Shown one piece after another: positions 4,715 through 43,381 of a DNA stretch of 64,000 bases. Each line of letters begins with the position of its first letter. Position 1 is the stretch's first letter. The translations under genes and the position numbers were made by a program. Location of the stretch: the NCBI GenBank assembly GCA_017448545.1, contig JAFSLH010000005.1:52627-116626 (forward strand), in the 5' to 3' direction. This DNA comes from Clostridia bacterium. Its GTDB lineage: Bacteria; Bacillota; Clostridia; Christensenellales; CAG-138. A model generated the notes under the pieces. The model saw only the letters and a list, made by a program, of their open reading frames with translations, was not told the origin of the DNA and did not search any database.

Positions 4715-4717
4715 GCC

Positions 4718-8253: not shown

Positions 8254-8313
8254 TGCAACCAAACGGTTGGATAGGCGGTATTATGATCAGATAGGGGAAA
8301 GGAGCTTACTGCT

Positions 8314-9282
8314 ATGAAAAAGAAATGGATTGCAATTTTGCTCGCGGCGGTGATCGCGGTTGCCTGCGTTGCCTGTTCCGCTAACGCGTCTAAGGCGTCC
8401 CGGGATCAGGGCGGCTATTATGCCACCAAGTCGGAGTCGTATTATTCCGACTCATGGGTGGAGATGGAGGAAGCGCCCGCTGCTGCCGGAATGGCGACTT
8501 CGAACAGTTATTCGGCAGTGAACACGTCTGCAAACGAGCAGGTTCCGCAGGAAGTCGGCCGCAAACTGATTCGGGACGCTTCGATGACGATCGAAACGAA
8601 GCTGTTTGACGAGATGATCCCGGAACTGCAGGCGCATATCGCAGTCTGCGGCGGCTATATCGAGTCCATGACCGAAAGCGGCAACAGCTATAACAGCAGC
8701 TCATATCGCCGCGCCTATTTCACCGCGCGCATTCCCGCCGACCGACTGGACGAGTTCCTCGGCAAAGTGGACGGCATCGGCAACGTAACCTCCAAGAGCC
8801 TTTCCACACGGGACGTGACTTCGCAGTATGTCGACGTGGAGAGCCGGCTGGAAGTGCTGCGGACCGAGAAGGAGAGTCTCGAACGGATCATGGCTGCGGC
8901 CGAAACGACCGTCGATATGCTGGAAGTGCAGTCGCGGCTGTATGACGTCATTGAGGAGATCGAGTCCTACGAAGCGACGAAGCGCACCTATGACGCGCTG
9001 ATTTCGTACAGCACGGTCAATATCAACGTGCAGGAAGTCATTGAACTGACGCCGCCGAAGGAAGAGACGCGCTGGGAGGAACTGAGCCGACGGTTTGCGA
9101 CGAGCCTTGACAACCTCGGCGAAGGAATCGTTGACTTCGGCATCGGCTTCGTCGTCGCGCTGCCGTGGCTGCTGGTGTTCGGCGTCGTGTTCGGCGGTAT
9201 CGCGCTGGCAATCATTCTTCCGATCCGTGCGAAGGTCAAGAAGCGTAGGGCGGCTGCCGCAAAGAAGGAAGAAAACAAATAA
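8314..9282 (+). CDS. DUF4349-like lipoprotein with C-terminal membrane anchor
   Basis: It has a lipobox (LLAAVIAVACVAC), a coiled-coil middle and a C-terminal TM segment followed by a KKRR tail. The family assignment is from memory. Confidence 0.6.
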   Translation: MKKKWIAILLAAVIAVACVACSANASKASRDQGGYYATKSESYYSDSWVEMEEAPAAAGMATSNSYSAVNTSANEQVPQEVGRKLIRDASMTIETKLFDEMIPELQAHIAVCGGYIESMTESGNSYNSSSYRRAYFTARIPADRLDEFLGKVDGIGNVTSKSLSTRDVTSQYVDVESRLEVLRTEKESLERIMAAAETTVDMLEVQSRLYDVIEEIESYEATKRTYDALISYSTVNINVQEVIELTPPKEETRWEELSRRFATSLDNLGEGIVDFGIGFVVALPWLLVFGVVFGGIALAIILPIRAKVKKRRAAAAKKEENK

Positions 9283-27013: not shown

Positions 27014-27859
27014 ATGTCGTCAATCGGATATTATAACGGAACCATGGACGCGCCGGACCGGATCCGGATTCCGCTTCTGGATCGCGCAGTCTGTTTCGGT
27101 GACGGATGCTATGAAGCGTGCTTTGTTCGAAACGGAAAAGGCTTTGGACTCGAGGCGCATATCGACCGGTTCTACAGGAGCCTTGCGCTGTTGCGGATTC
27201 AGCCGTACAGCGATCGCGAAACGCTGAAAGCGATCCTGGCGCAATGCGTGGCGGCGGCGAACGAGCCGACTTCGGTGCTCTATTGGCAATGCTCGCGCGG
27301 AACGGCTCCGCGGAAGCACGCGTTTCCGCCTGCGGACGTTCCTTCCAATCTGGCGGTTACGGTTACGCCGAAGCCGCTGCCGGAGGCGCACGGAACGGTT
27401 CGGCTGATGACAGCCGAGGATATTCGATACACGATGTGCAACGCCAAAACACTGAACCTGCTGCCGAACGTTCTGACGAATCAGATCGCAACGGATCGCG
27501 GACTGGACGGCGCGATCTTTCTCCGGAACGGAATCGTTACGGAGGGGACGCACTCCAACGTTCACATTCTGCAGGACGGCGTATTCATTACGCATCCCGC
27601 GGATCAGTACATCCTGAACGGCATTACGAGAGCCGTTCTGCTTGATACGTGTGCTGCGCTCGGAATCCCCGTCCGGGAAGAACCGTTTACCCGGGAACGG
27701 CTGTTTACTGCCGATGCGGTGCTGATTTCGGCAAGCACGGCCGGCCCGCGGACGGTTACGGAGATCGACGGCGTCGCCGTCGGCGGCAAAGACAACGGAT
27801 TGGCGAAAGCGCTGCAGACAGCGTATTATCAACGGTTTCTGAAAGAGACGGAAGCATGA
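27014..27859 (+). CDS. dat: D-amino-acid aminotransferase (class IV aminotransferase)
   Basis: 281 aa. The N-terminus GYYNGTM-IPLLDRAVCFGDGCYE, plus a class IV fold signature, resembles Dat. Confidence 0.8.
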   Translation: MSSIGYYNGTMDAPDRIRIPLLDRAVCFGDGCYEACFVRNGKGFGLEAHIDRFYRSLALLRIQPYSDRETLKAILAQCVAAANEPTSVLYWQCSRGTAPRKHAFPPADVPSNLAVTVTPKPLPEAHGTVRLMTAEDIRYTMCNAKTLNLLPNVLTNQIATDRGLDGAIFLRNGIVTEGTHSNVHILQDGVFITHPADQYILNGITRAVLLDTCAALGIPVREEPFTRERLFTADAVLISASTAGPRTVTEIDGVAVGGKDNGLAKALQTAYYQRFLKETEA

Positions 27860-29934
27860 CGGCAAAAGAAAAGAAGCGTCGGCGCAGAAGGATACGCGTG
27901 ATCGTTGCGGGAGGGATCCTGCTGATCGGCGTCCTTGTATTTGCGGCTTCGCTTTGGCTTTCAATTGCATATTTCGGGATTCGACCGTTTGTTGCAGCCG
28001 AGTACGGGCAGGGTTTGCCGAATCCTTCGGCGTTCGGCGATCGCGTCGTCGGCTATGCGGAAGCGTCGGAACCGCAAAAGGGCGTGAACCGGGTTCGCTT
28101 ACGGCTCGAAAACGGCGGCGAACGCGTTGCTTGGCTGACGGTACGCGATACGACCGCGCCGACTGCCGAACCGGCGGAGCGCACGATTTCCACGCTCGTT
28201 ACGCTGAAACCGACGGACCTGATCGAGCATCTTGCGGACGCGGACCTGGTGGGCGTGTCGTTTGCCTCTGTTCCGCCGTTTGGCACGGTCGGCGACTATT
28301 CCGTGGAGATTCTGCTGGAGGACGTTTCCAATAACAAAACTTCCTTGGAATCGACGCTGCATATTCGCGTCGTCAACGAAGGCGTGACGATTGAAGCAGG
28401 GGAGGATGCACCGTCTGTGGAATCGTTTCTGATCGATGACTATGCGGTGGAACGTGTTGCCGGACTGGATGCGCAAACGATCCGAACGCCCGGCAAGCAT
28501 TCGGTATTCGTTACGATCGACGGGGAAACGTATGAAACGTTTCTGACCGTAACAGACACGGTTGCGCCGACGGCGGAAACGCAAACGCTGTTCCTGAAAC
28601 CGGGAACGAACCCCGATCCGGCAGACTTCTTACGCAACGTTTCGGACGGCAGCGACGTTTCGGCTGCGTTCCTGCAAGCGCCCGATCCGGATGTACGCAC
28701 GTTTCAGACGGTGGAAATCCGCCTGACCGACGCGGCGGGGAACACGTTCGACTGTACCGCGTCGCTGCTTTTTACCGATATTCTGCCGATTACGATCGAA
28801 GCAAGGAACAGCGTACTGACAATCGAGGACTGCTTCCCGGACGGCGTGCCGGAAGGCGCTGCACTGCTGACTTCCTTTATTACGAACCGGCTCGGCACGT
28901 TTTCCGTATCGGTTGCAGTGGACGGGACGGAGGAGATGGCGATTATCGAAGTCGTCGATACGACCGCGCCGGTGCTGTACGTTCGCAAGCAGAAGTACTA
29001 TACGAACCATCCGCTTCCGACCGAAGAGCTTTATACGGCAGTGGTGGACGGAACGGAAACGACCGTGACGGCGTCGGAGATCGATTGGTCGTTCGAGGGC
29101 GTGCAGACCGTTACGCTGACGGCAGTCGATGCAGCAGGGAACGAATCGGAGGATTCGTTTGAACTGACACTTGTACGGGATGCAGTCGCGCCGACTCTGT
29201 ACGGCGTGCGCGATCGGAACGCCTACGTCGGCGAACCGGTGGCATACCTTGCGGAAGTTTTTGCAACGGATGCGCTGGACGGGGAGATTGCGGTAACCGT
29301 CGACGCTTCGGCAGTGGACCCCAACCGCGCGGGAACGTACACCGTGACGTATACAGCGACGGACCTGTCCGGGAATGCGACGGTCAAAAGCTGCCGGTTT
29401 ACGTTTACGAATCCAACCGTGTCGGAGGAAGAACTGCGCGCGCTGACGACGGAGATTGTTGCGCGCGTTACGACGCCGGACATGACGAAAACCGAAAATC
29501 TGGTCGCCCTGTACCGGTACGTCTATGACCGGATTACGTACAACGGCAAATCGGACAAAACGGACTGGCGCAAGGAAGCCGTCAACGGCATCCGGCTCGG
29601 CGTGGGCGACTGCTTTACGTATTACGCCACGCTGCGCGCGCTGCTGGATGAAACGGATATTGAATACATGAGCGTAACGCGCAAGGGCGGCGCAACGCGG
29701 CATTTCTGGCTGCTGGTCAACGTCGGTACCGGATGGTATCATCTCGACGCGAACCACAACGCCACGGCACACTGGGAATGCTTTATGTGGACAAACGCAC
29801 AATGCGCTTCGCCGGCCGGATTCTGGACATTTGACCAGTCGCTTTATCCGGCGGTTGCAACGGAACCGTTCGTTGCAAGCGCGGTGATTGCCGCCGAAAA
29901 GGCAGAGAGAAACGAATCCATCGAAACGGAATGA
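27856..29934 (+). CDS. Membrane-anchored Ig-repeat protein with C-terminal transglutaminase-like core
   Basis: An ATGA overlap couples it to dat. It has an N-terminal TM segment and repeated modules each introduced by DT(T/V)AP(T/V). The C-terminal Cys-His-Asp core is GVGDCFTYYA and HFWLLVNVGTGWYHLDA. Confidence 0.75.
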   Translation: MTAKEKKRRRRRIRVIVAGGILLIGVLVFAASLWLSIAYFGIRPFVAAEYGQGLPNPSAFGDRVVGYAEASEPQKGVNRVRLRLENGGERVAWLTVRDTTAPTAEPAERTISTLVTLKPTDLIEHLADADLVGVSFASVPPFGTVGDYSVEILLEDVSNNKTSLESTLHIRVVNEGVTIEAGEDAPSVESFLIDDYAVERVAGLDAQTIRTPGKHSVFVTIDGETYETFLTVTDTVAPTAETQTLFLKPGTNPDPADFLRNVSDGSDVSAAFLQAPDPDVRTFQTVEIRLTDAAGNTFDCTASLLFTDILPITIEARNSVLTIEDCFPDGVPEGAALLTSFITNRLGTFSVSVAVDGTEEMAIIEVVDTTAPVLYVRKQKYYTNHPLPTEELYTAVVDGTETTVTASEIDWSFEGVQTVTLTAVDAAGNESEDSFELTLVRDAVAPTLYGVRDRNAYVGEPVAYLAEVFATDALDGEIAVTVDASAVDPNRAGTYTVTYTATDLSGNATVKSCRFTFTNPTVSEEELRALTTEIVARVTTPDMTKTENLVALYRYVYDRITYNGKSDKTDWRKEAVNGIRLGVGDCFTYYATLRALLDETDIEYMSVTRKGGATRHFWLLVNVGTGWYHLDANHNATAHWECFMWTNAQCASPAGFWTFDQSLYPAVATEPFVASAVIAAEKAERNESIETE

Positions 29935-32024
29935 GTCAGAACAGCAAACGACAACCGAATCGGAAATCCTCCGCGCTCGCCCGCTTTTTCGGCGGGCTGA
30001 TCCTCGCGCTCGGCATTCTGATCGGCGGTTCGCTTTTGCTGATCGGCATTGCATACTTCGGGCTGAAGCCGGTCGTCGTTTGGGAATACGGAACGGGTAT
30101 TCCTGAGATTTCCGTGTTCGCACCGGGTAAAGCCGCAAGCTATGTGGATACGCTGCCGCAAAAGCCGGAAATCGGTCTGCACACCGTTCGGATCGAAGTG
30201 AACGGGTGGGAACGGCCTGTCTGGCTCTATGTGGAGGACACGACGGCGCCGACCGCCACGGCGCGGGAACAGACCGTTTCGACCAAAACGGTTTTGAAGC
30301 CGACGGAGCTGATCGACCATCTGACGGACGCCGACAAGGTTTGGGTTGACTTTTTGGAGATTCCGCCGTTCGGAACCGTCGGCGACTTTCCGGTCACGAT
30401 TGTTTTGCAGGACGTTTCCGGCAACCGTTCCGAAGTGGAATCCGCGCTGCACGTCCGGCGCGTCAAGGATACCGGATTAACGGTGGAAGCGGGAGACGAA
30501 GCGCCGCAGGCGGACGATTTTCTGACCGATGCGTACGGTGCGACGCTTTTGACTGTGATCGACGAAACCATGCTGCGGACGCCGGGAACCTATCCGATTG
30601 AGATTGCGGCGGACGGCGTTACGGTTCAGTCGACTCTGACCGTTGTGGATACCAAAGCGCCCGACGTCGAAACGCACATGCTGTTCCGCGAACCGGGGGC
30701 AACGGTTTTGCCGGAGGAATTTTGCGAGCGGATCGAGGATGCGTGCGACGTTACGGTCGCATATCTCGTGGCCCCGGACCCGGACGAACGCTCGTTCCAA
30801 CAGGTGACAATCCGTGTAACGGACGCGGCGGGCAACGTCACAGACGCGACGGCAGGGCTTCTGTTCACGCACGCGACGCCGGTCGTTGTGGAGGCGCGCA
30901 ATACGTCGCTGACGGCAGAGGAATGTCTCGAAGATGCGGAATACACCGGAGCCGTTCTGGTGCGCGACTTCGTGCCGGACACAACCGGCTTGTTTGCGGT
31001 GACACTGTATGTGGACGGTGCGCCGGAGATTGCGCTCGTCGAAGTGCAGGACACGGTTGCGCCCGTCGTGCAGACGAAGCCGTTTCAATGGTATCTCGAT
31101 CATCCGATCGACGCTGCGCGGCTTTGTACCGTCACCGATGCAACGGCGACGGAAGCGTTTTATGTGAGCGAAGTGGACTGGCGCGCTGCGAATCAGGAAG
31201 TCACGATTCTCGTGCGCGACGCGGGCGGAAACGAGACCGAAGCTACGCTTTCGCTTTCGCTGATCGCAGACCTGGAGCCCCCGGCGCTGTACGGCGTGCA
31301 GGATCGGTATTTCTATCTCGACGAGCCGTATGCGTACCTGACGGGCGTCACGGCGGTAGACAATGCGGACGGACTCGTTGAAGTGACAGTGGACACAAGC
31401 GCCGTTACGCCGAACAAGACCGGTTCGTATCGCGTGACGTACTTTGCGAGCGATTCGGTCGGAAACAGCATTTCGCGCATTGTGACCATTACGGTCAAAA
31501 AATCCACGACCAATACGAAAAAACTCGACAAGTACGTGAAAAAGGTTGCGGATCGCATCTTTACGGACAAGATGTCGCTGGCGGACAAGGTAACGGCGAT
31601 CTATGAATATGTCTTTGACAACATCCATTACGTCGCAAAGTCGGACAAGACGGATTGGAAAAAGGAGGCGCTGCGCGGTTTGACGACAGGCAAGGGCGAT
31701 TGCTTCACCGCGAACTGCGTTGCGCGCGCGCTTCTGGAATCTGTCGGCGCGGAAACGTATCCGATCCGGCGGTATAAGGGCAACGGCAATCACTACTGGC
31801 TGTTGGTCAACATCGGGACCGGGTGGTACCACTTCGATGCACACAATTCCTGGGAGCACGGCTATCAGTGCTGCATGTGGACGGATGCGCAATGCTCGGT
31901 GATGAGCGCCTATTGGCGGTACGACAAGACGACGTGCCCGGCGGTCGCGACGGAGCCGTTCAGCAAATCTGCGGCACAGGCCGTGGAGAAAGAATGGCTG
32001 CAATCCCATCAAAACGGAGAATAA
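29931..32024 (+). CDS. Paralogous membrane-anchored Ig-repeat / transglutaminase-like protein
   Basis: An ATGA overlap couples it to the upstream paralog, and the architecture is the same. The core reads GKGDCFTANC and HYWLLVNIGTGWYHFDA. Confidence 0.75.
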   Translation: MSQNSKRQPNRKSSALARFFGGLILALGILIGGSLLLIGIAYFGLKPVVVWEYGTGIPEISVFAPGKAASYVDTLPQKPEIGLHTVRIEVNGWERPVWLYVEDTTAPTATAREQTVSTKTVLKPTELIDHLTDADKVWVDFLEIPPFGTVGDFPVTIVLQDVSGNRSEVESALHVRRVKDTGLTVEAGDEAPQADDFLTDAYGATLLTVIDETMLRTPGTYPIEIAADGVTVQSTLTVVDTKAPDVETHMLFREPGATVLPEEFCERIEDACDVTVAYLVAPDPDERSFQQVTIRVTDAAGNVTDATAGLLFTHATPVVVEARNTSLTAEECLEDAEYTGAVLVRDFVPDTTGLFAVTLYVDGAPEIALVEVQDTVAPVVQTKPFQWYLDHPIDAARLCTVTDATATEAFYVSEVDWRAANQEVTILVRDAGGNETEATLSLSLIADLEPPALYGVQDRYFYLDEPYAYLTGVTAVDNADGLVEVTVDTSAVTPNKTGSYRVTYFASDSVGNSISRIVTITVKKSTTNTKKLDKYVKKVADRIFTDKMSLADKVTAIYEYVFDNIHYVAKSDKTDWKKEALRGLTTGKGDCFTANCVARALLESVGAETYPIRRYKGNGNHYWLLVNIGTGWYHFDAHNSWEHGYQCCMWTDAQCSVMSAYWRYDKTTCPAVATEPFSKSAAQAVEKEWLQSHQNGE

Positions 32025-32027
32025 CGT

Positions 32028-33542
32028 ATGAAAACGATTTTGGAATATCTCGATCTACAGGCGATGCTTCGACCGGAGAAGGCCGCATTTTGCGACGAAA
32101 CGGTTTGCTATTCGTTTTCGGAGAGCAAGGAAATGACGATGCGCATCGGTTCCGTTCTGCTCTCTGCCGGAGCGAACCGGGAATCGGTCGCAATCCTTCT
32201 GCCGCGCTCCGCAACAATGCTGCTCGCGATGCTCGGCACGATGCGCGCGGGCTGCCCCTATGTGCCGCTGGACGCGGAACTCGGCGCGCTTCGTCTTTCC
32301 TCGATCTTTGAGCGAGTTCAGCCGCGGTTTCTGATTGCCGATGAATCGACGGAACCGATCGCGCGGGAGAACGGTTTTTCCGGCACTGTGATCCGGATTT
32401 CCGAAGCTATGCAAACCGAGCCCGATCTATGCGCGCTTGCAGACGTGTATCATCGGCTGCTCGACGTCGATCCGGCGTATATTGTATTTACAAGCGGTTC
32501 GACCGGCGCACCGAAAGGCGTGATCGGCAAGCACAGCGCGATGCTCGATTATGCGGAGCAGTTGACCGGCGTTTTGCGCGTGACGGACAAGGATGTGTTC
32601 GGGATGCAGGCGCCGCTGTACGTGGATGCGTGCCTGAAGGAAATTCTTTCGGTTCTGCGCTGCGGCGCGACGCTTTGGATCGTTCCGAAGCGACTGTTTA
32701 TGGCGCCGGTGGAGTTGGTACGTTTTTTGAACGACCATGCGGTGACGACCGTTTGCTGGGTGGTTCCGGCGCTGACGCTGATTTCGTCGCTGCACACGTT
32801 CAGCGAGATTGTGCCGACCACGCTGAAAACGATTGCGTTCGGCAGCGAAGTGTTCCCGATCCGGCAGCTGCACCTTTGGGAACAGTACGTTCCGGCACGG
32901 TACATCAATCTGTATGGGCCGACCGAGTGCACCGGCATGTCTTGCTGGTACGAAATTGACCGCGCATTTTGCGACGGGGATCGGATTCCGATCGGCCGAC
33001 CGTTCGACAATACGGAAATCCTTTTGCTGGATGAATCCGATCATCCGGCGACCGAAGGCGAAATCTGCATCCGCGGCGTTTGTCTCTGTCATGGGTACTG
33101 GAACGATCCGGAGCATACGGCCGCTGCGTTTGTGCAGAACCCGCTGTGCGCGTCCTATCCGGATCGGATCTATCGCACGGGAGACCACGGCCGGTACAAT
33201 GCGCGCGGAGAACTGGAGTTTCTCGGCCGAATCGACAATCAGATCAAGCGGATGGGCCATCGGATCGAGCTCGGCGAGCTTGAGAACGCTGCGCTGAAAA
33301 CGGACGGCGTCTCGGGCGCGTGCGCCGTATTCGATCCGGAAAAGAACCGGCTTGCGCTTGCCTATACCGGAACGGCTGAAAAAGCTGCCGTTGTGACCGG
33401 ACTGCGCGGTTCCGTACCGGAATATATGCTGCCCGGCAAAGTGCTCCGCCTTGATCGGATGCCGCTGACCGGCAACGGCAAAACCGACCGGCTCGCTGTG
33501 CATCGTCTCTGCTTCCCGTCGAAACCTTCTGCAGTCAAATAA
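32028..33542 (+). CDS. Stand-alone amino-acid adenylation enzyme, DltA-like carrier protein ligase
   Basis: Adenylation motifs FTSGSTGAPKGV, NLYGPTE, YRTGD, GRIDNQIKRMGHRIELGELE and GNGKTDR. At 504 aa it is DltA-sized. Confidence 0.85.
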   Translation: MKTILEYLDLQAMLRPEKAAFCDETVCYSFSESKEMTMRIGSVLLSAGANRESVAILLPRSATMLLAMLGTMRAGCPYVPLDAELGALRLSSIFERVQPRFLIADESTEPIARENGFSGTVIRISEAMQTEPDLCALADVYHRLLDVDPAYIVFTSGSTGAPKGVIGKHSAMLDYAEQLTGVLRVTDKDVFGMQAPLYVDACLKEILSVLRCGATLWIVPKRLFMAPVELVRFLNDHAVTTVCWVVPALTLISSLHTFSEIVPTTLKTIAFGSEVFPIRQLHLWEQYVPARYINLYGPTECTGMSCWYEIDRAFCDGDRIPIGRPFDNTEILLLDESDHPATEGEICIRGVCLCHGYWNDPEHTAAAFVQNPLCASYPDRIYRTGDHGRYNARGELEFLGRIDNQIKRMGHRIELGELENAALKTDGVSGACAVFDPEKNRLALAYTGTAEKAAVVTGLRGSVPEYMLPGKVLRLDRMPLTGNGKTDRLAVHRLCFPSKPSAVK

Positions 33543-33555
33543 GAAAGGAATTTGT

Positions 33556-33786
33556 ATGGATACGTTACTGGAGATTTTGTCCGAGCTGCGGCCCGACGTG
33601 GATTTTGCCGCGGAAGACCGGCTGGTCGAACGGGGGCTGCTCGGTTCGTTTGACGTGGTCATGCTGGTGACCCGAATTGAGGAGGAGTTCGACGTTGTGA
33701 TTCCGGCGCGTTTGATCACGCCCGAAACGTTCCGCTCCGCCGAAGCGCTGTATTCCGTCATTCAAACGCTGTCCGAGGAGGATTGA
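33556..33786 (+). CDS. DltC-like aminoacyl/acyl carrier protein
   Basis: 76 aa. The sequence LLGSFDVVMLVTRIEEEF places the phosphopantetheine Ser at residue 31, as in DltC (IDSF). Confidence 0.8.
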   Translation: MDTLLEILSELRPDVDFAAEDRLVERGLLGSFDVVMLVTRIEEEFDVVIPARLITPETFRSAEALYSVIQTLSEED

Positions 33787-35363
33787 TGCTGTTCACGTCC
33801 TGGGGATTCGCATTGTTGATCGCGGTTCTGATTCCGCTGTACTATGCGGTTCCTCAAAAATGCAAAACGGCTGTGCTGCTGCTTGCGAACCTGGTGTTCT
33901 ATGCGTTCGCAGGCGTTTTCGCGCTGCTGCTTTTGCTCGGGACGGCGGCTTCGGTCTATTGCTTCGCACGTTGGATCGGATGGCTATGGACGCAGCAGAA
34001 GGATTCGCTTGCCGCGCATCGGGAGGACTGGGACAAGGCGCAAAAGAAATCGTTCCGGGAACGGATGGAAAAGAAGCGTCGGCTGGCGCTTGCGCTGTGC
34101 CTTGTACTGCACTTCGGGATTCTGTTCGGGATGAAGTACGGCGCGGGAATCGTCGGCCTTGCCAACGGCCTGTTCGGCACGACGTGGGACGGGACGAAGA
34201 TCGTCCTGTTCATGGGCTGTTCGTTCTACACGTTTTCTGCGATGGGGTATGTGATCGACGTGCAGCGCGGCAAGTATCCCGCTGAGCGAAATCCGTTTCG
34301 CGTGCTCCTGTTCACTTCGTTCTTTCCGATTCTGGTGCAGGGGCCGATCAGCCGCTTTGACCGGCTCGGCGAAACGCTGTTTGCGCCGCATCGCTTTTCC
34401 CGGGAAAACCTCGAAGCCGGTCTGCTGCGCGTACTGTGGGGCTACTGGAAAAAGCTGATCGTGGCCGATCGGCTTTTGGTGGCGGTTAAGCAGCTGATCC
34501 GATATCCGGAGACCTATAACGGCGCGTTTGTATTCCTCGGAATGCTGCTGTACGCGGCAACGCTGTATGCCGACTTTACCGGCGGCATCGACATCACGAT
34601 CGGCATCGGACGAATGCTCGGGATTCGCATCGACGAGAACTTTATCCGACCGTATTTCTCTAAGAGCATCGGCGAATACTGGCGGCGCTGGCATATCACG
34701 CTCGGCGCATGGTTCAAGGAATACCTGTATTATCCGATTTCAGTCAGCAAACCGCTGCGTCGATTGACGAAAGCGGCGCGAAAACTCGGCGACGGGTTTG
34801 CGCGGAGATTGCCCGTTTATATCGCAACGTTCGCCGTCTGGGCTGTGACCGGTATGTGGCACGGCAATTCGTGGAATTTCCTCGTTTGGGGCCTCTCAAA
34901 CGGCGTGATCCTATTGGCAAGCGAGGAGCTCTCGCCGCTCTACGCGCGTTTTCACGGCCGTTTTCGCGGCTGGAAGGATGCTTGGGCCTATCGTGCGTTT
35001 ACGGTCATTCGGACGGTTCTGCTGCTTTCCTGCCTGCGAATGTTCGACTGCTATGCGACGGTGCCCGAAACGCTGCGCGCGTTCGGTTCGATGTTTACGG
35101 TGTGGAACCTGCCGATGCTTTGGAACGGCGGAATTGCGTCGCTCGGACTTTCGTTCGGAGATTGGATCGCCGCAGGGGTCGGCGTAGTGCTGATGTTTGC
35201 CGTTTCGTTGCAGCAGCGTCCGGCGCTGCTGACGCCGCGTTTTTTGCAAAAGCCGCTTGCCGTCCGGCTCGCCGTTTACGGGACGCTTCTGATTACGATT
35301 CTGGTGCTCGGATACTATGGATTCGGATTCGATGCGGGACAGTTCATTTATAATCGGTTCTGA
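33786..35363 (+). CDS. MBOAT family O-acyltransferase (DltB/AlgI-like)
   Basis: Multi-TM protein containing the catalytic His block YWRRWHITLGAWFKEYLYYPI. A TGATG overlap couples it to the carrier gene. Confidence 0.85.
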   Translation: MLFTSWGFALLIAVLIPLYYAVPQKCKTAVLLLANLVFYAFAGVFALLLLLGTAASVYCFARWIGWLWTQQKDSLAAHREDWDKAQKKSFRERMEKKRRLALALCLVLHFGILFGMKYGAGIVGLANGLFGTTWDGTKIVLFMGCSFYTFSAMGYVIDVQRGKYPAERNPFRVLLFTSFFPILVQGPISRFDRLGETLFAPHRFSRENLEAGLLRVLWGYWKKLIVADRLLVAVKQLIRYPETYNGAFVFLGMLLYAATLYADFTGGIDITIGIGRMLGIRIDENFIRPYFSKSIGEYWRRWHITLGAWFKEYLYYPISVSKPLRRLTKAARKLGDGFARRLPVYIATFAVWAVTGMWHGNSWNFLVWGLSNGVILLASEELSPLYARFHGRFRGWKDAWAYRAFTVIRTVLLLSCLRMFDCYATVPETLRAFGSMFTVWNLPMLWNGGIASLGLSFGDWIAAGVGVVLMFAVSLQQRPALLTPRFLQKPLAVRLAVYGTLLITILVLGYYGFGFDAGQFIYNRF

Positions 35364-35366
35364 CGT

Positions 35367-36389
35367 ATGAAAGCTGTTTGGAAAAAATGGATCGTTGCGG
35401 GAATCGCCGCGCTGCTGACTGTGGGACTGCTTTGGGCCGCACAGCGGCTCGTCATGCCGAAATACCAGTCCTCGTCCATCGAAGGCAGCCTGACAGAAGA
35501 ATATTACCGCGAAACGCTGAACCATGACGTCCTGTTTATCGGCGACTGTGAAGTGTTCTCCAACTTTTCGCCGATGACACTGTATCGGGAATACGGTATT
35601 GCGTCCTATATCCGCGGATCGGCGCAGCAGCTTGTCTGGCAATCCTATGCGCTGCTCGAGGATGCGCTCGTGACCGATTCTCCGTCCGTCGTTGTGTTTA
35701 ATGTTCTGGCGCTGAAGTACGGGGAACCGCAATCGGAAGCATATAATCGGATGACGATCGACGGGATGCGGTGGGGTAAGGCGAAGATCGACGCGATCCA
35801 AAGCAGCATGACGGACGGGGAAGAGGCGATCACGTACGTTTTCCCGCTGCTGCGGTTCCATGATCGCTGGAGCGAGCTGACTGTGGAGGACTTCCGCTGT
35901 TTCTTCGAAAAGGAACCTGTTTCGTTTAGCGGGTATCTGCTGCGCACCGAAGTACGGCCGGTCACGCAAACGCCCACGCCGGCGCCGCTGACCGACCCGC
36001 ATCTGCCGCAGACGAGCATGGAGTGGCTCGAAAAGCTGTATACGCTGTGCGAATCACACGGGATCGAACTGGTCCTTGTCAAATCCCCGTCGATCGTGCC
36101 GCACTGGTATGACGAATGGGATGCGGATATTGTTGCATTTGCAAATTCGCACGGGATATGGTATACTAACACCATCGCACAAAACGACGAAATCGGGATC
36201 GACTACGAAACGGATACCTGCGATATGGGGCAGCACTTGAACGTTGCCGGCGCGGAGAAGCTTTCGAGCTGGTTCGGCGCGGAACTGCTTCGGCGGTACG
36301 ATCTGCCCGATCGGCGAACGGACGACGCATATACTGCGGTTTGGACGGAACAGATCGAACAATACGAAAGGGCGAAAGCGACGGAATAA
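35367..36389 (+). CDS. Membrane-anchored SGNH/DltD-like protein with Cys at the expected nucleophile position
   Basis: N-terminal TM segment. Block I reads VLFIGDCEVF and the C-terminal block reads DMGQHLNVAGAEKL. The gene sits where dltD would be. Confidence 0.6.
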   Translation: MKAVWKKWIVAGIAALLTVGLLWAAQRLVMPKYQSSSIEGSLTEEYYRETLNHDVLFIGDCEVFSNFSPMTLYREYGIASYIRGSAQQLVWQSYALLEDALVTDSPSVVVFNVLALKYGEPQSEAYNRMTIDGMRWGKAKIDAIQSSMTDGEEAITYVFPLLRFHDRWSELTVEDFRCFFEKEPVSFSGYLLRTEVRPVTQTPTPAPLTDPHLPQTSMEWLEKLYTLCESHGIELVLVKSPSIVPHWYDEWDADIVAFANSHGIWYTNTIAQNDEIGIDYETDTCDMGQHLNVAGAEKLSSWFGAELLRRYDLPDRRTDDAYTAVWTEQIEQYERAKATE

Positions 36390-36390
36390 T

Positions 36391-36909
36391 ATGAAACGAT
36401 TCGGAATCCTGGTACTGGTATTGCTTTTGACGGCGATCGGCTGCGCGCAGCCTGCTTCCGCGCCGCAGAACGGCACGGTTGTATTCGTCGACCCGAACGC
36501 GGTCAAAGCCGGCGCGTACGGCGATCTCTACTTCACGTCCAAGGGATATTCCTTCGGCATTTACGATCCGACGTCGGAGATCTTTGCGCATCTGACGGCG
36601 AACAACTCGTTCGCAGAACAAAGCTGTGCGTTCGACGGGGAAGACGTTTACTACTTTTTCAGCGGATTTGAAATCATGGCGAACGTGATCGACGGCGAAG
36701 AACGTGTCACGGCAATCAATATCGTAGACGATACCGTAATGACGCCGGACGGGCTGTATATCGGCATGCCGGAAGCGGATCTATGCGAAGCGCTGCATTG
36801 TGAGATCGACGACAGCGGCCTTTATCTTGCGAAAGACGGCACCGCGCTGAGAACCGTTACGGTGACCGACGGCACGGTTCGCGCGATCTCATATCTCCCC
36901 GCGGAATAA
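36391..36909 (+). CDS. Small lipoprotein, unknown function
   Basis: Lipobox LLLTAIGCA. The ATG at 36391 lies 1 nt after the upstream stop codon. Confidence 0.6.
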   Translation: MKRFGILVLVLLLTAIGCAQPASAPQNGTVVFVDPNAVKAGAYGDLYFTSKGYSFGIYDPTSEIFAHLTANNSFAEQSCAFDGEDVYYFFSGFEIMANVIDGEERVTAINIVDDTVMTPDGLYIGMPEADLCEALHCEIDDSGLYLAKDGTALRTVTVTDGTVRAISYLPAE

Positions 36910-37112: not shown

Positions 37113-37186
37113 TCCGAAAATCAGATCATTCTGTGAGAAGGGCGCCGTATATTCGGCGATTGTTCTCACCGAAGAAGGGGGAAGAC

Positions 37187-38128
37187 ATGGTCGCGTATAT
37201 TTTGAAACGTGTTGCGGGATCGATCGCGATCCTGCTGCTGATCATGGTCGTCACCTTTCTGCTGATGAACGCGATTCCGGGGAGCCCTTTTTTGACCGAA
37301 AAATCCACGCCGGAGCAGATTGCTTTGGCGGAGGCGAAGTATGGGTTGGATAAGCCATTGTATGTCCAGCTTTGGAACTACATCAAGAACTATTGCGTGG
37401 GCGACCTCGGCACGTCTCTCAAAATGCAGGAAGGAACGCCCGTCAAGGATATCATTTTTCATCAGGGGAAGTTCGCTCTGTCGATCAAACTCGGCGCGTG
37501 CGCTTTGGTGATTGCCGTATTGATCGGTATCCCGCTTGGCTGCATAGCAGCGTACTATCGCGGGTCGTGGATCGACGGTCTGCTTCGCGTGCTGACCACG
37601 GTCGGCGTTGCGGTGCCGACGTTTGTTTTGGCGGCGCTGCTTTTGGTCGTGTTCTCCGTCAACTTGAATTGGTTTCCGACGCTCAGCGGCAGTCTGCCGG
37701 ACGCAAAGAGCTATGTGCTGCCGGTGATCAGTCTGTCGTTCTATTATACGTGCTATATCGCGAAGCTGATGCGCACGAGCATGCTTGACGCGATTCATCA
37801 GGATTACATCCGCACGGCGAAGGCGAAGGGCGTCAAGACGCATATTTTGGTGCTCAAGCACGCGCTGCGCAACTCGCTGATTCCTGTGATCACATATCTC
37901 GGACCGGTCCTGGCGGGCATCATCACGGGCAGCTTTGTGGTGGAATCGACGTTCTCGATCCCGGGGCTCGGCAAGTATTTTGTGCAGTGCGTCTTAAGCC
38001 GCGACTATCCGGTCATCATGGCTACGACGGTCGTACTGTCCGCGCTTGTCATTTTCATGATGCTGATCGTTGACATCACGTATAAGCTCGTGGACCCGCG
38101 TATCACGCTGACTGCAAAGGAGGAATAA
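37187..38128 (+). CDS. oppB: Oligopeptide ABC transporter permease
   Basis: The N-terminus YILKRVAGSIAILLLIMVVTFLLM-IPGSP and an EAA-like loop (YIRTAKAKG) fit OppB. Confidence 0.9.
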   Translation: MVAYILKRVAGSIAILLLIMVVTFLLMNAIPGSPFLTEKSTPEQIALAEAKYGLDKPLYVQLWNYIKNYCVGDLGTSLKMQEGTPVKDIIFHQGKFALSIKLGACALVIAVLIGIPLGCIAAYYRGSWIDGLLRVLTTVGVAVPTFVLAALLLVVFSVNLNWFPTLSGSLPDAKSYVLPVISLSFYYTCYIAKLMRTSMLDAIHQDYIRTAKAKGVKTHILVLKHALRNSLIPVITYLGPVLAGIITGSFVVESTFSIPGLGKYFVQCVLSRDYPVIMATTVVLSALVIFMMLIVDITYKLVDPRITLTAKEE

Positions 38129-38131
38129 CAG

Positions 38132-39496
38132 GTGAAAGAACCCTTTGCAAAGCTGAGCCCTTTCCATGTCAATCCCGACAGCATCCTGGAAACATTCGGG
38201 TTGAAGGAGGATGATTTCGCGTCTGCGTCCGGCGAGGAAAAGGAATCCATGGTCGAAATGCACAAGAGCATTTCGTATTGGCAGGATGCGCTGCGCCGCT
38301 TCCGCGCAAACACCGTTTCCATGGTCGCGCTGTTCGTATTTCTGCTTTGCCTCGTGTTCGCATTTATCGGACCGATGCTGATTCCGTACGATTATTCTGA
38401 GCAGTACCGCAGCTCACAGAAACTCGGGCCGATGGAGTATTCCAAGAACGAGGAAACGATCCGCGCGTTGTCGAAAAACGTTGAAGCCTTCTACGCGACG
38501 GGGTTGCGTCCCGGCAGTCTGACCGCCTTGTCCAAGGGCAATTACGTGATTTCCTACAAGGGCAAGACGTACGCGTTCACCCTGGAAAAAGCGCTGGATA
38601 AGAGCGTGATCGTGATGCAGTCGGATGCCGAAGACCCGCTGCGCCTCGTGAAGGAGAGCAATATCAAGGACGGCGTTTATACCGATTACACGGCGATTGC
38701 CTATACCGAAACGGCGGCGGAGGACGCGACCGTGCTCAAGCTGCGGACGTATGTGTTTCCGCATGTGTTCGGCACCGACTCGCAGGGGCGCGACATCATG
38801 GCCAGAACGATGTACGGCGCGCGCGTTTCGATTATCATCGGCGTTGTGGCGGCTTTGATCGTCCTCGTCATCGGTTCCCTGTACGGCGCGATCTCGGGCT
38901 TGTGCGGCGGACCGGTCGATTTTGTGATGATGCGCATCGTGGAATTGATTTACTCGATTCCGGAGGTGCTGATCGTCCTGCTGCTGCAGGTGGTTCTGAA
39001 GGACCCGCTGCAGGCATGGTTCCAATCGGGAACGAGCGGATTTGTCAAAGCCATGTCCGACCTCGGCGCGGGCATCGTGAGTATTTTTATTACGTTTGCC
39101 GTGCTGTACTGGGTCACGATGGCTCGTATCATTCGCGGGCAGGTCCTGCAGTTGAAAAAGCAGGAATACGTAACGGCGGCGACCGCGCTCGGCGCGTCAA
39201 ATACGCGGATCATCGCCAAGCATCTGCTGCCGAACTGCATCGGACCGCTTGTGATTACAACGTGCCTGCAGATTCCGTCGGCAATCTTTCTGGAATCGTT
39301 CCTGTCGTTCCTCGGTCTCGGCGTTTCCGCGCCGATGGCGAGCCTCGGCTCTCTGTGCTCCGACGCGCTGGAAACAATCACTCTTTACCCGTACCGGCTC
39401 GTTTTTCCGGCGGTCATTCTGACCATCATCGTGCTGACGCTGAATCTGGTCGGAGACGGTCTGCGCGACGCGCTTGATCCGCGCCTGAAGAAGTAA
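38132..39496 (+). CDS. oppC: Oligopeptide ABC transporter permease with enlarged extracytoplasmic loop
   Basis: It contains GTDSQGRDIMAR and an EAA loop (YVTAATALGAS). The start is GTG. About 110 extra residues lie between TM1 and the GTD motif. Confidence 0.85.
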   Translation: MKEPFAKLSPFHVNPDSILETFGLKEDDFASASGEEKESMVEMHKSISYWQDALRRFRANTVSMVALFVFLLCLVFAFIGPMLIPYDYSEQYRSSQKLGPMEYSKNEETIRALSKNVEAFYATGLRPGSLTALSKGNYVISYKGKTYAFTLEKALDKSVIVMQSDAEDPLRLVKESNIKDGVYTDYTAIAYTETAAEDATVLKLRTYVFPHVFGTDSQGRDIMARTMYGARVSIIIGVVAALIVLVIGSLYGAISGLCGGPVDFVMMRIVELIYSIPEVLIVLLLQVVLKDPLQAWFQSGTSGFVKAMSDLGAGIVSIFITFAVLYWVTMARIIRGQVLQLKKQEYVTAATALGASNTRIIAKHLLPNCIGPLVITTCLQIPSAIFLESFLSFLGLGVSAPMASLGSLCSDALETITLYPYRLVFPAVILTIIVLTLNLVGDGLRDALDPRLKK

Positions 39497-39509
39497 AGGA
39501 GGTTCTCGC

Positions 39510-40517
39510 ATGGAAGAAAACAAGCCTTTGCTGAAAGTTCAGGATCTGAAAGTTTCCTTCTTCACCCCGGCGGGCGAAGTCAAGGCGGTGGACGGCATCT
39601 CCTATACCCTCGGTTATAACGAGGTCATGGGCATTGTCGGCGAGTCCGGTTCCGGAAAGAGCGTTGAAGCGTATTCCATCATCGGGCTTTTGCAGGACCC
39701 GGGCAAGGTGACCGGCGGCAGCATCGAGTTCGAGGGCGAGGACGTGCTCGCGTTCACGCCGGCGCAGATGCGCCAGTTTCGCGGAAACAAGGTCAGTATG
39801 ATCTTCCAGAACCCGATGACGTGCCTTAACCCGGTTTATACGATCGGTAATCAGCTTACAGAGGCGCTGACCTGTCACGATTCCTCGATTTCCAAGGAGG
39901 AAGCGAAAAAGCGGGCGATCGAAATGCTCGAACTGGTCGGCATCAACAATGCCGAAAAGCGGATGAACCAGTACCCGCACGAGTTTTCCGGCGGCATGCG
40001 TCAGCGCGCGATGATCGCTATGGCGCTGATCTGTTCTCCGAAGCTGTTGATTGCCGACGAGCCGACGACCGCGCTGGACGTGACGATTCAGGCACAGATT
40101 CTGGAACTGATGAAGAGCCTGCAAAAGAAGGAGAATACTTCGATCATCTTCATCACGCACAACCTGGGCGTCGTGGCGGAAATCTGCGATCGTGTGACCG
40201 TTATGTACGCGGGACGCATCGTGGAGCAGGGCAAGGTCAACGATATCTTTTACCGTCCGCAGCATCCGTACACAAAGGGGCTGCTCACGTCGATTCCGCG
40301 TTTGGACGAGGACGGGCTCGAACGGTTGATTCCGATCGAGGGAACGCCGATCGACCTGCTCGATCCGCCGAAGGGATGCAGCTTCGGACCGCGCTGCAGT
40401 CAGTGTATGAAAATCTGCCTGCGGGAAAAGCCGCCGTTTGCAGAGGTCGGCGAAGAACACATTTCCGCGTGCTGGCTGCACTTTAGGGACGGGCTCCCAA
40501 AGGGGGATGAAGTATGA
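39510..40517 (+). CDS. oppD: Oligopeptide ABC transporter ATP-binding protein
   Basis: Walker A GESGSGKS, the signature FSGGMRQR, and an OppD C-terminal domain. Confidence 0.92.
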
Positions 40518-41524
40518 GCGACGAACGTAAAAAACTGGTCGAGGTCGAGTCGCTGCGCAAATATTTCACGGTCAAAGGCAATAAGCTGTTCGAAAAGAAA
40601 TACGTGCAGGCGGTCGAATCCGTATCGCTCTTCATTTACCAGGGGGAAACGCTCGGACTCGTCGGCGAGTCCGGCTGCGGAAAGACGACGCTCGGCAGAA
40701 CGATCATCCGGCTGTATGAGCCGACTTCCGGGCGCATCGTATACGACGGAACGCCGATCTTCGATTCCGAGCAGAAGATTCGCCTGAATATGCTGAAGTA
40801 CCGGCGAAAGATGCAGATCATCTTTCAGGACCCGTCCGCATCGCTTGACCCGCGCATGACGGTCGGAGAAATCGTAGGCGAAGCGCTCGATATCCATCAT
40901 CTGACGCAGAACAAGAACGAGCGGCGCGACCGCATCTGTTCTCTGCTTTCGGAGGTCGGGTTGAATACCGAGCATGCCAACCGCTTCCCGCATGAGTTTT
41001 CGGGCGGTCAGCAGCAGCGCATCGGCATCGCCCGCGCGCTCGCCGTCGACCCCGAATTTATCGTCTGCGACGAGCCTATCTCTGCACTGGACGTTTCGAT
41101 CCAGTCGCAGATTGTGAACATGCTGGAGGATTTGCAGCGCGAGAAGGGACTGACATACCTGTTCATCGCGCACGACGTTTCGGTGGTGCGTCATATTTCA
41201 GACCGCATCGGCGTGATGTACCTCGGATCGCTGGTAGAGCTTGCCGAAAGCTACGAGCTGTGCAACCACCCGATTCACCCGTATACGCAGACGCTGCTGT
41301 CTGCGGTGCCGCTGCCGGATCCGGAAAAGAGCCGCGCAAGACAGCGTATCCTGCTCGAGGGCGATATCCCGAGCCCGATGAATCCGCCGTCCGGCTGCCG
41401 GTTCCACACCCGTTGCCCGTATGCGACGGAGCGCTGCAAGGCCGAAACGCCTGTTTTCCGGGAATACAGCCCGGGTCACTACGCTGCCTGCCACCTTTTG
41501 GAACAGGGTGGTTCGGATAGATAA
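40514..41524 (+). CDS. oppF: Oligopeptide ABC transporter ATP-binding protein
   Basis: Walker [10 protein letters not shown] and the signature FSGGQQQR. An ATGA overlap couples it to oppD. Confidence 0.92.
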
Positions 41525-41575
41525 AAAACAGTAGTTCTCTGTACAAAAGAACAGAATCCAAAGGAGGAAAAAACC

Positions 41576-43381
41576 ATGAAGAGAATCATTGCATTGCTTC
41601 TTGTGCTGTGCCTGGCAGTATCGCTCTTTGCGTGCACAACCAGCACGCCGGCCAACACGGGAACGACGACAACGACCGACACGACGAGCACGACGACGAA
41701 CTCCGGTTCCCAGTCCGCAAACGCCGGTACGACGGACAACAGCGGCAAGACCGATACGACCGAAACGACCGTGGCTGAAAAGTTTGTGGTCAATGCCTGC
41801 ATTGCGTCTGAACCTGAGACGATTGATCCGTCCACCATCAGCTCCGTAGACGGCTCGACCTACACGCAGCATCAGTTTGAGAACCTGATGAAGTATCAGA
41901 TGACCAACGATAACCCGGCGGGCGACCCGAATATGAAGTCCACTGAGATCGTGCTCGGTCAGGCCGCAGGCTATACCGTGTCCGATGACCTCACCGTCTA
42001 CACCTTCACGCTTCGTGACGACATTTTCTGGTCGGACGGCGTGCCGGTCAAGGCGCAGGATTGGGTCTATTCCTGGCAGCGCCTCGTCGATCCCGCGACC
42101 GCGTCTGACTACGGCTACTTCCTGGATAACATCGTGCTGAACGCGTATGATATCTATGAAGAAAACACCAAGGACAAGAGCGAGCTCGGCATCAAGGCGC
42201 TTGACGACAAGACGCTGGAGATCACCCTTGAAGCGCCCTGTGCGTACTTCCTCGAGATGTGCGCCTTCGCGTCCCTCGTCCCGCTCCGTCAGGATGTTGT
42301 GGAAGGCAGCGACAACTGGACCGATCCGGCGAACATCGTCGTCAACGGCGCGTACAAGCTCACCGAGTGGGTACACGACAGCTACCTGAAGATGGAAAAG
42401 AACGAAAAGTACTATGATTACGATAACCTCGGACCGGATGAGATCATCTGGTGGCTGAGCGACAGCGAGACCGCGATCTACTCCGCATATCAGTCCGGCG
42501 AGTATCAGTTCATCGAGAGCTTCCCGAGCGATCTGACCGAGACGCTGCAGGCTTCCGGCGATTGCTACATCAATCCGTACGTCGGCACCTATTATCTGTA
42601 TCTGAACTGCAGCAAGGTCACTGATTGGCGCGTCCGCGCTGCGATGGTCCTCTCCGTTGATCGTGAGAACATCGTAGACAACGTCACCCAGCAGAATCAG
42701 AGCCCGGCAACCGGTTTCGTTGCTTCCGGTATCCTCGATTCCACCGGTGCGGACTTCGCGTTCGGCGTTTCCGAGCTCGGTGCAATCTACAACACGCTTT
42801 CGACCATGTATCCGGATGCTGACCTCAGCACCTATGCGGGTCGCTGCGAGCTTGCACAGCAGCTCTATCAGGCGGCGGTTGACGACGGATCCTGGGATCC
42901 CAACACCACCGTTGTTTACAACTTCAACACGTCCGAAACCCACAAGGCGATCGCAGAAGCCTGCGGTTCCGACTGGGTGACGGTTCTCGGTCTGAAGATC
43001 TCGCTGGAGAACCAGGAATGGGCGACCTACACCAACGGACTCGGCGAGCACACGTTCGGCGTTGCGCGTCTCGGCTGGATCGCGGACTACAATGACCCGG
43101 TCACTTACCTTGAGCTGCTGGTCACCGGCAATTCTTACAACTACGGTCTGTTCAGCAATGAGGCCTACGACGCGAAAATCAACAGCGCGAAGGCGATGCT
43201 TGCGGGTGCAGAGCGTGACGCCCTGCTGTACGAAGCGGAAGAGCTGCTGTTCGGCGAAGGCGGCTTCCCGGTTTGCCCGATCTACTACTACACCAACCCC
43301 TACTGCGCACAGGGCCTGACCAATGTCGCTTACACGACGATGGGTTACTTCTTCTTCCAGTATGCGCAGCCCGCTGCGTAA
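41576..43381 (+). CDS. oppA: Peptide ABC transporter substrate-binding lipoprotein
   Basis: Lipobox LFACTT, a Thr-rich linker and a family 5 SBP body of 601 aa. An AAGGAGG RBS precedes the start. Confidence 0.9.
   Translation: MKRIIALLLVLCLAVSLFACTTSTPANTGTTTTTDTTSTTTNSGSQSANAGTTDNSGKTDTTETTVAEKFVVNACIASEPETIDPSTISSVDGSTYTQHQFENLMKYQMTNDNPAGDPNMKSTEIVLGQAAGYTVSDDLTVYTFTLRDDIFWSDGVPVKAQDWVYSWQRLVDPATASDYGYFLDNIVLNAYDIYEENTKDKSELGIKALDDKTLEITLEAPCAYFLEMCAFASLVPLRQDVVEGSDNWTDPANIVVNGAYKLTEWVHDSYLKMEKNEKYYDYDNLGPDEIIWWLSDSETAIYSAYQSGEYQFIESFPSDLTETLQASGDCYINPYVGTYYLYLNCSKVTDWRVRAAMVLSVDRENIVDNVTQQNQSPATGFVASGILDSTGADFAFGVSELGAIYNTLSTMYPDADLSTYAGRCELAQQLYQAAVDDGSWDPNTTVVYNFNTSETHKAIAEACGSDWVTVLGLKISLENQEWATYTNGLGEHTFGVARLGWIADYNDPVTYLELLVTGNSYNYGLFSNEAYDAKINSAKAMLAGAERDALLYEAEELLFGEGGFPVCPIYYYTNPYCAQGLTNVAYTTMGYFFFQYAQPAA

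Follow-up and report, generated by a model that had tools for sequence, protein, structure and literature searches.

A cysteine in place of the SGNH nucleophile serine in the proposed terminal transferase of a Dlt-like acylation cassette of gut Clostridia

A stretch of 64,000 nucleotides from the genome of a Clostridia bacterium of the Christensenellales (GenBank contig JAFSLH010000005.1, positions 52,627 to 116,626), hereafter called the window, encodes an N-terminally anchored 340-aa protein with an SGNH fold (35367..36389, ATG start; coordinates are positions in the whole window, and all features lie on its forward strand), in which a Cys residue occupies the place of the nucleophilic Ser. 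Here, we propose, with a probability of approximately 0.7, that this protein, designated SGNH(Cys), acts outside the cytoplasm, anchored in the membrane, as the terminal transferase of a Dlt-like, carrier-dependent acylation relay and that Cys61 is its nucleophile. The residue belongs to block I, G59-D60-C61-E62 (35541..35552), and, as noticed in a preliminary description of this DNA, its codon is TGT (35547-35549) within VLFIGDCEVF, which we read directly from the raw sequence. That this is the sole block I-like motif of the protein, as also claimed there, holds in practice, since the other G-S pair (R83-G84-S85) ends strand beta2, i.e., it is at the position of block II; S85 is variable (S/N/T/G) among members of the Cys clade. 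In place of the block I Ser (GDS) by which the SGNH superfamily is recognized, the protein thus has GDC, with the usual Asx residue (D60) preceding the Cys. Among solved SGNH structures surveyed in the literature, the block I Ser is present in all except the Oskar domain (PMC10792757).

The NCBI annotation of the protein is 'SGNH/GDSL hydrolase family protein' and nothing more. No model in Pfam (including Lipase_GDSL and Lipase_GDSL_2 at E ≤ 0.1) or NCBIfam matched it, a search of the same databases with the first ten close relatives yielded nothing useful, and PDB sequence searches with the query and then with a narrow profile (A1) returned only noise. Its relatives form 4266 clusters (90%) at E ≤ 1e-3 and 8518 representatives at 50% identity, and we found no paper on the clade carrying GDCE. 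Several close relatives, such as P0005, P0024, and P0025, carry the precomputed Pfam accession PF27429, and the family may already be catalogued.

A structural model was built with AlphaFold2 (AF2) on 36 relatives and reached a predicted local distance difference test score (pLDDT) of 88.4 and a predicted template modelling score (pTM) of 0.86. The model and a Foldseek comparison agree on an SGNH fold, that is, a three-layer alpha/beta/alpha architecture with a central parallel sheet, which bears out the fold suspected in the preliminary description. An N-terminal transmembrane helix (residues 2-28) is preceded by Lys residues in the model, suggesting that the SGNH domain lies outside the cell. 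Strand beta1 (55-59) runs through G59-D60-C61 into a helix (61-66), the arrangement seen at the nucleophile elbow of SGNH proteins. Of the best Foldseek matches in PDB, nearly all have an SGNH fold; the very top ranks are designed scaffolds from a GDSL-like protein, and the matches include 4hf7, 3p94, Bacteroides GDSL-like lipases, Escherichia coli TesA (1ivn, TMt ~0.7), PatB, Axe2, and PAF-AH. DltD was absent from the top 50 fold matches.

Three independent alignments, each of them weak, place Cys61 on the nucleophile Ser of a reference protein (DltD GSSE, PAF-AH GDS, and Bacteroides GNS). In the HMMER alignments, which used a profile of both Cys and Ser clades (A2), 'DVlfiGsSevy' was matched to 'DVLFVGDSMVQ' of PAF-AH Ib (E 0.056), so that the Cys61 column falls on the Ser of GDS, and the same column falls on the Ser of 'VVFMGNSITE' in a Bacteroides GDSL-like scaffold. 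The third alignment was made by hhalign against DltD sequences recovered from the PDB alignments of 6pfx and 6o93, and it sets G-D-C-E on G-S-S-E column for column (E 0.018, probability 2.6%, blocks I-III only). In the comparison with DltD and the SGNH families it is Cys61, and not another Ser, that falls on the nucleophile column, and the elbow topology, the Ser/Cys column of the wider family (see below), and the three reference alignments agree with the earlier claim that Cys stands where Ser is expected.

Conservation was assessed in an orthologue set comprising the best 80 of ~600 matching stretches of species-representative genomes (50-76% identity); counts given out of 81 include the query. 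All 80 orthologues have GDCE, block I is conserved in 81/81, and G59-D60-C61-E62 is unchanged in the 120 closest database clusters, to 54% identity, so that the position, for which the earlier text had allowed that orthologues might vary, never does so in either sample. Cys61 is encoded by TGC in 43 orthologues and by TGT in 30, and the use of both Cys codons points to selection on the amino acid. The best 80 all belong to Bacillota, nearly all of them to Clostridia (Lachnospiraceae, Oscillospiraceae, and Christensenellales), and come largely from gut or rumen samples.

In the wider family, the Cys61 column was surveyed in the 150 best representatives at 50% identity, 144 of which were aligned at this position: 95 have Ser, 49 have Cys, and nothing else occurs (144/144). 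Of the data that put Cys61 at the nucleophile position, this column is the strongest. Block I is spelled GDCE in 44, GSSH in 29, GNSD in nine, GSCN in four, and GSCA in one, with GSSQ, GSSN, GDSD, and others among the remainder. A neighbour-joining tree of 123 full-length representatives groups the 23 GDCE sequences in one clade without intruders, whose sister is P0156 (GDSD), while four GSCN sequences are nested within the clade of GSS[NQH] sequences. Because the GDCE clade is monophyletic and the GSCN lineage is separate from it, Ser was replaced by Cys at least twice at the same site. Several residues switch along with Cys61, including D60, E62, H53 (L/I/V in Ser clades), R83, E104 (Q), and N112 (E/D). 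The second Cys lineage (GSCN, GTCN, and GSCA) comprises P0179, P0194, P0210, P0268, and P0245 among the GSS[NQH] sequences; at one locus (L086:712-3828), genes of this lineage are tandem paralogues following an MBOAT gene whose product ends in FIYGAF, and several members seem to have Arg or another residue in the block V His column, which could be either an alignment shift or a real loss.

The other residues expected of an SGNH active site are also present. Block V, D286-M-G-Q-H290-L-N292 (36222..36242), would supply the general base (H290, 36234-36236) and the acid (D286, 36222-36224). The DMGQHLNVAG segment that had been likened to the SGNH Asp/His block, residues 286-295, does align with canonical block V, and more firmly so than block I with its references, namely with DGxHPN/DGVHPN of TesA, Lipase_GDSL_2, and Bacteroides GDSL-like structures; with profile A2, HMMER matched 'DkgkHlN' to 'rdGvHpN' of the Bacteroides GDSL-like scaffold at E 6.6e-5. 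An hhalign comparison with E. coli TesA aligned block V alone, with DGIHPN on MGQHLN, and below-threshold matches to Lipase_GDSL_2 were seen in 15 of the 36 close relatives (best E 8e-5), covering only the C-terminal half and ending at the His. H290 is conserved in 81/81 and D286 in 80/81, both being kept in Cys and Ser clades, and D283 is invariant in the orthologues. Candidates for the remaining blocks are R83-G84 (35613..35618) at the end of strand beta2 (80-84), placed at block II (oxyanion Gly) from topology only, and N112 (35700..35702) at the end of strand beta3, a possible block III residue. R83 and G84 are invariant in the GDCE clade, with mostly L at 83 and G/A/S at 84 in Ser clades; N112 is N in 79/81 orthologues and E or D in Ser clades. 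The residues invariant across the family, common to Cys and Ser types, are G59, H165, R167, D175, D283, D286, H290, and N292. Since the active-site set is retained as a whole, a catalytic Cys is favoured over a homologue that has lost its activity.

Two of these invariant residues belong to H165-D-R167 (35859..35867), a 'YHxRW' motif in a low-confidence loop. H165 is present in 97%/97% and R167 in 94%/93% of Cys/Ser clade sequences, and both are found in 81/81 orthologues; the pLDDT of the model drops below 50 at residues 162-167 and nowhere else. This segment might act as a movable lid, or it might contact the MBOAT protein or the acceptor. A permuted triad of the AlgX/AlgJ type ('DxHW', with His165 as the base) was considered and rejected, as block V is canonical for SGNH proteins and YHxRW here is without the Asp.

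The role of terminal transferase is suggested by the company of the gene. SGNH(Cys) is encoded in a cassette with the order transglutaminase-like protein(s), adenylation enzyme, carrier protein, MBOAT, SGNH(Cys), and lipoprotein, which is kept in approximately 70 of the 80 genomes. At the 80 loci, an MBOAT gene was found in 75, a carrier gene in 72, an adenylation gene in 71, a transglutaminase-like gene in 67, and a lipoprotein gene in 61, most absences being due to contig ends. From the adenylation gene to the SGNH gene, neighbours overlap or are separated by 3-13 nt (3 nt between MBOAT and SGNH), and MBOAT adjoins the SGNH gene in ~73/80 loci. The 'DltD position' assigned to the protein in the preliminary description is therefore correct in terms of gene order, directly after DltA-, DltC-, and DltB-like genes, but not as membership of the DltD family, of which no hidden Markov model (HMM) matched. 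Some loci depart from this layout: at L049, L050, L060, and L071 (match at ~8001-9000; in L060 at 3913-4926), no MBOAT, adenylation, or carrier gene lies within 8 kb, and at L072 and L078, ~3.3 kb is inserted between the MBOAT and SGNH(Cys) genes. Gene fusions are also found: SGNH(Cys) carries a C-terminal lipoprotein domain in P0121, P0122, P0127, and P0129, and Ig and Transglut_core domains are fused to SGNH(Cys) in P0125 and to SGNH(Ser) in P0156. Such Rosetta-stone fusions tie the accessory genes to the SGNH enzyme.

The MBOAT protein (33783..35363; numbered from TTG at 33783, with an ATG one codon on) has a DltB-like core followed by ~110 extra C-terminal residues. It matches Pfam MBOAT (2.7e-18), and its match to the DltB model TIGR04091 is limited to residues 124-412 of 526 (140 bits vs a cut-off of 375). 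H304 and H360 are invariant (72/72). The last six residues, immediately followed by the stop codon, form an FxYxxF motif, F521-I-Y523-N-R-F526 (35343..35360), and all 74 orthologous MBOAT proteins that could be evaluated end in FIY[NSDG][QR][FY], with F521 and Y523 invariant. In both DltX and PatA, the Tyr of this motif is acylated and then donates the acyl group to the SGNH partner (PMC12148441). A separate DltX-like open reading frame (ORF) was not found in the 64-kb window, in which the MBOAT gene is the sole ORF ending in FxYxxF.

The donor side of the cassette consists of two genes. In the DltA position lies a stand-alone amino-acid adenylation enzyme of the non-ribosomal peptide synthetase (NRPS) type (32028..33542; 319 bits against the AA-adenyl-dom model TIGR01733, cut-off 317), which reached 216 bits against the DltA equivalog TIGR01734 (cut-off 560) and is nearer to the A-domains of LgrA and GrsA than to DltA structures. 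Its specificity code, D-A-K-(C/W)-[VI]-F-L-G-M-K, is essentially invariant in 69 orthologues, and the code Asp suggests that the substrate is an alpha-amino acid. This code presumably differs from that of DltA. A Lys at code position 239 occurs in Glu-activating domains, and to read Lys239 as a binder of an acidic side chain is a lead only. Together with a D-amino-acid transaminase gene (see below), the invariant Lys239 may hint at an acidic D-amino acid as the acyl group. In the DltC position follows a 76-aa carrier protein (33556..33786; Pfam PP-binding 21.1 bits, cut-off 20.8) with weak matches to the ACP and DltC models of NCBIfam; its putative phosphopantetheine site, Ser31 in GSFD, is invariant (73/73).

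On this basis, a four-step relay can be proposed. The adenylation enzyme would activate an alpha-amino acid (not D-Ala, judging by the code) and load it onto the Ser31-phosphopantetheine of the carrier, from which the MBOAT protein, using His304/His360, would move the acyl group across the membrane onto its own Tyr523 in FIYNRF. Cys61, activated by His290 and Asp286, would then attack the aryl ester to give an aminoacyl-thioester enzyme, and the acyl group would finally be handed from Cys61 to an acceptor in the envelope. The first two steps, as putative assignments, follow from homology and from the published mechanisms of Dlt and PatAB, and the last two are an inference. The data show where Cys61 lies and how it is conserved, the SGNH fold, the cassette, and the motifs; the thioester, the direction in which the acyl group moves, and the nature of this group and of its acceptor are deduced from these.

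Several observations weigh against this proposal. Each of the alignments by which Cys61 was matched to a nucleophile Ser is weak (E 0.018-0.056; hhalign probability 2.6%), and four of the 80 orthologues are without an MBOAT gene within 8 kb. The spacing between Asp and His, D286-x-x-x-H290, is DxxxH vs the canonical DxxH, although approximately 22 relatives are one residue shorter at block V and thus have DxxH. Reference SGNH alignments are unreliable in the block II/III loops, and G84 and N112 as possible oxyanion-hole residues are only guessed from the model. Finally, His165 and Arg167, a pair invariant across the family and located in the unmodelled loop, could share in catalysis in some other way.

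Among the alternatives, the one that survives best also makes Cys61 catalytic, with the protein acting mainly as a hydrolase, i.e., a (thio)esterase that removes the modification, or that proofreads or unloads the acyl-Tyr. Most characterised SGNH proteins and most of the Foldseek matches (e.g., TesA, Axe2, and PAF-AH) are hydrolases, and MBOAT-SGNH operons may contain a separate SGNH esterase such as Ape1 (PMC12148441). However, SGNH(Cys) is the sole SGNH protein of its cassette and occupies the PatB/DltD position directly after MBOAT, a relay that spends ATP merely to hydrolyse its own product would be futile, and the fusions to transglutaminase/Ig and lipoprotein modules suggest a surface substrate. 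Taken together, a mainly hydrolytic role appears unlikely.

Whether Cys61 is catalytic at all must also be considered, as the protein might be a non-catalytic or differently wired homologue in which Cys61 is structural, redox-sensing, or metal-binding and the transfer is carried out by another residue or protein. The absence of the canonical Ser, the failure of any curated SGNH or DltD HMM to match the protein, and the unexplained invariant His165/Arg167 pair all fit such a scenario. However, a pseudoenzyme would usually have lost its other active-site residues, whereas H290 is invariant here, D286 is retained in 80/81, and G84 and N112 are conserved; moreover, no residue other than the nucleophiles Ser and Cys occurs at the site in the 144 representatives. 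The secondary structure of the model shows no other invariant Ser at the end of a strand close to block I, with S68 and S80 located away from the elbow. A C61-C228 disulfide was also rejected: C228, the second invariant Cys, is conserved to the same degree in clades where residue 61 is Ser and is hence not a dedicated disulfide partner. We consider a non-catalytic Cys61 very improbable. A third idea is that the Cys stems from an error in sequencing or assembly, or that a Ser enzyme has mutated in this one strain. TGT is only one substitution from the Ser codons AGT and TCT, but 13 independent contigs encode the identical protein, and the Cys is shared by 80 species-level genomes and by 120 clusters, both of its codons being in use, which refutes this idea to near certainty.

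The cassette is part of a tight run of genes whose first member, in the window, is a class IV aminotransferase (27014..27859; Pfam Aminotran_4) nearest to D-amino-acid transaminase, with 218 bits against TIGR01121 (cut-off 277) vs ~100 bits for IlvE models; its stop codon overlaps the next start. Of the 80 loci, 10 have an aminotransferase gene here, and each of these belongs to the loci of higher similarity. It is followed by two membrane-anchored transglutaminase-like proteins: TG1 (27856..29934), in which Ig-like repeats are combined with a transglutaminase-like (Cys-His-Asp) core at the C-terminus (Pfam Bact_surface_Ig-like and Transglut_core), and its paralogue TG2 (29931..32024), with a transmembrane anchor, an Ig-like region (2.1e-5), and a transglutaminase-like core (Transglut_core, E 1.3e-11). 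These tandem paralogues (27856-32024) are ~700 aa each, and their start and stop codons overlap those of their neighbours. On the other side, a 172-aa lipoprotein with the lipobox AIGC (36391..36909) is an accessory member of the cassette, located 3' of the SGNH gene in 61/80 loci; its AF2 model (pLDDT 83.6) gave only weak fold matches, to YfeY/BLIP-like proteins (TM ~0.4). Directly downstream on the same strand is an Opp-type oligopeptide ABC transporter (37133-43381; two permeases, two ATPases, and one SBP_bac_5 protein), which also follows the cassette on other contigs with the identical protein (L001 and L002).

Ser-type relatives of the enzyme (GSSx, GNSD, GDSN, and GDSD), also from Clostridia, have the same layout of adenylation enzyme, carrier, MBOAT ending in FxYxxF (FVYMNF, FIYGQF, or FIYMQF), and SGNH protein. 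At the three Ser-type loci with enough flanking DNA, no transglutaminase-like or lipoprotein neighbours were found; several Ser- and Cys-type relatives lay on contigs too short for gene context. The adenylation codes of the Ser types differ from that of the Cys clade, and two of them are without the Asp that binds the alpha-amino group, which suggests that the family consists of Dlt-like relays with different acyl groups. In a GSST cassette (L085:4623-10294; code D-A-I-R-W-V-F-I-G-V-K, MBOAT ending FVYMNF), the SGNH gene is followed directly by one for a radical-SAM lysine 2,3-aminomutase, a neighbour that suggests a relay installing beta-lysine on the envelope. The GNSD/GDSN cassettes (L089:1671-6349 and L091:4636-9044) have the code S-M-L-Y-W-[IV]-F-L-D-I-K, and since Ser replaces the alpha-amino-binding Asp, their acyl group is probably not an alpha-amino acid. 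Within this family, the Cys clade is the branch with the D-A-K code and transglutaminase partners.

What a Cys would offer to such a transferase is a separate question. A thioester retains more group-transfer potential than the alkyl ester formed by a Ser enzyme, and amine-acylating enzymes (sortases, L,D-transpeptidases, transglutaminases, and Lnt, for example) work through thioester intermediates; for these reasons, amide formation by the Cys61 enzyme is possible. One may then speculate that the change from Ser to Cys represents new chemistry, in which the thioester would enable an amide (isopeptide) bond, an acidic D-amino acid being passed via the carrier-MBOAT-Tyr relay onto an amine of peptidoglycan or a surface protein outside the cell, and the transglutaminase-like Cys enzymes, which are encoded alongside and in some cases fused, would then cross-link or trim the resulting branch. 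This scenario is tentative and unlikely; a Cys SGNH enzyme is also capable of O-acylation, as in the case of TviD (PMC8760489). If the scenario were true, gut Clostridia would aminoacylate their cell wall outside the cytoplasm by a route that is new to biology.

MBOAT-SGNH relays (Dlt, PatAB, and the acetylation of alginate and cellulose) are the general means by which bacterial envelope polymers are acylated, and the path from acyl-Tyr via acyl-Ser to the polymer was worked out only in 2023-2025. The present cassette suggests that this scheme is more modular than described, as a carrier donor is combined with a fused shuttle and Ser is replaced by Cys. It would define an uncharacterised surface modification of abundant gut commensals, in hundreds of species of gut Clostridia, within a wider family of Dlt-like cassettes for which at least three different acyl specificities are indicated. 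In addition, the Ser and Cys sister enzymes provide a natural pair for asking what a thioester gives to an SGNH transferase.

Among known systems, DltXABCD, the pathway for D-alanylation of Gram-positive teichoic acids, in which DltD transfers D-alanine to lipoteichoic acid, shares with the cassette the joint encoding of an adenylation enzyme, a small carrier, an MBOAT protein, and an N-terminally anchored extracytoplasmic SGNH protein, as well as the Tyr of FxYxxF. GSSE of DltD aligns with GDCE, including the Glu after the nucleophile, and in both it is followed by an 'SP/HP..L...Y' helix. However, the nucleophile of DltD is Ser (GSSE) rather than Cys, DltX is a separate microprotein whereas its motif is here fused to the MBOAT C-terminus, and the cassette has the order A-C-B-'D', an NRPS-like adenylation enzyme with another specificity code, and additional transglutaminase-like and lipoprotein partners. 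Neither the query nor 36 relatives matched the DltD models of Pfam and NCBIfam at E ≤ 10. The proposed role of SGNH(Cys) is like that of DltD or PatB, but by every model compared it is not an orthologue of DltD or a member of its family, and the operon is not a dlt operon.

A second likeness is to the MBOAT-SGNH systems for O-acetylation, PatA/PatB and their counterparts (AlgI/AlgJ and WssH/WssI), in which the MBOAT protein has extra C-terminal helices ending in FxYxxF (FIYANF in Neisseria gonorrhoeae PatA vs FIYNRF here). In these systems, the PatB-type SGNH neighbour receives the acyl group from the Tyr of PatA, and MBOAT/SGNH pathways other than Dlt have no carrier protein (PMC12148441). 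The PatAB type thus differs in having acetyl-CoA as the donor, no adenylation enzyme or carrier, and a Ser nucleophile, whereas the cassette appears to have a carrier donor and has Cys.

For an SGNH-superfamily protein with a Cys nucleophile, the literature yielded a single experimental precedent, TviD, and for MBOAT-SGNH systems it yielded none. In this SGNH-like O-acetyltransferase of the Vi antigen, block I reads Gly-Ser-Cys, and O-acetylation requires its Cys together with the block V His (PMC8760489). The block I Cys and block V His are shared with the protein described here, and the G-S-C spelling with the GSCN lineage, a likeness drawn from the published description only; TviD differs in being cytoplasmic, in using acetyl-CoA directly, in having a TPR domain, and in having no MBOAT partner. 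The cassette is a combination of a Dlt-type donor side, a PatA-type fused shuttle, and a Cys in the SGNH partner, the first two of which have been ascribed to separate systems (PMC12148441).

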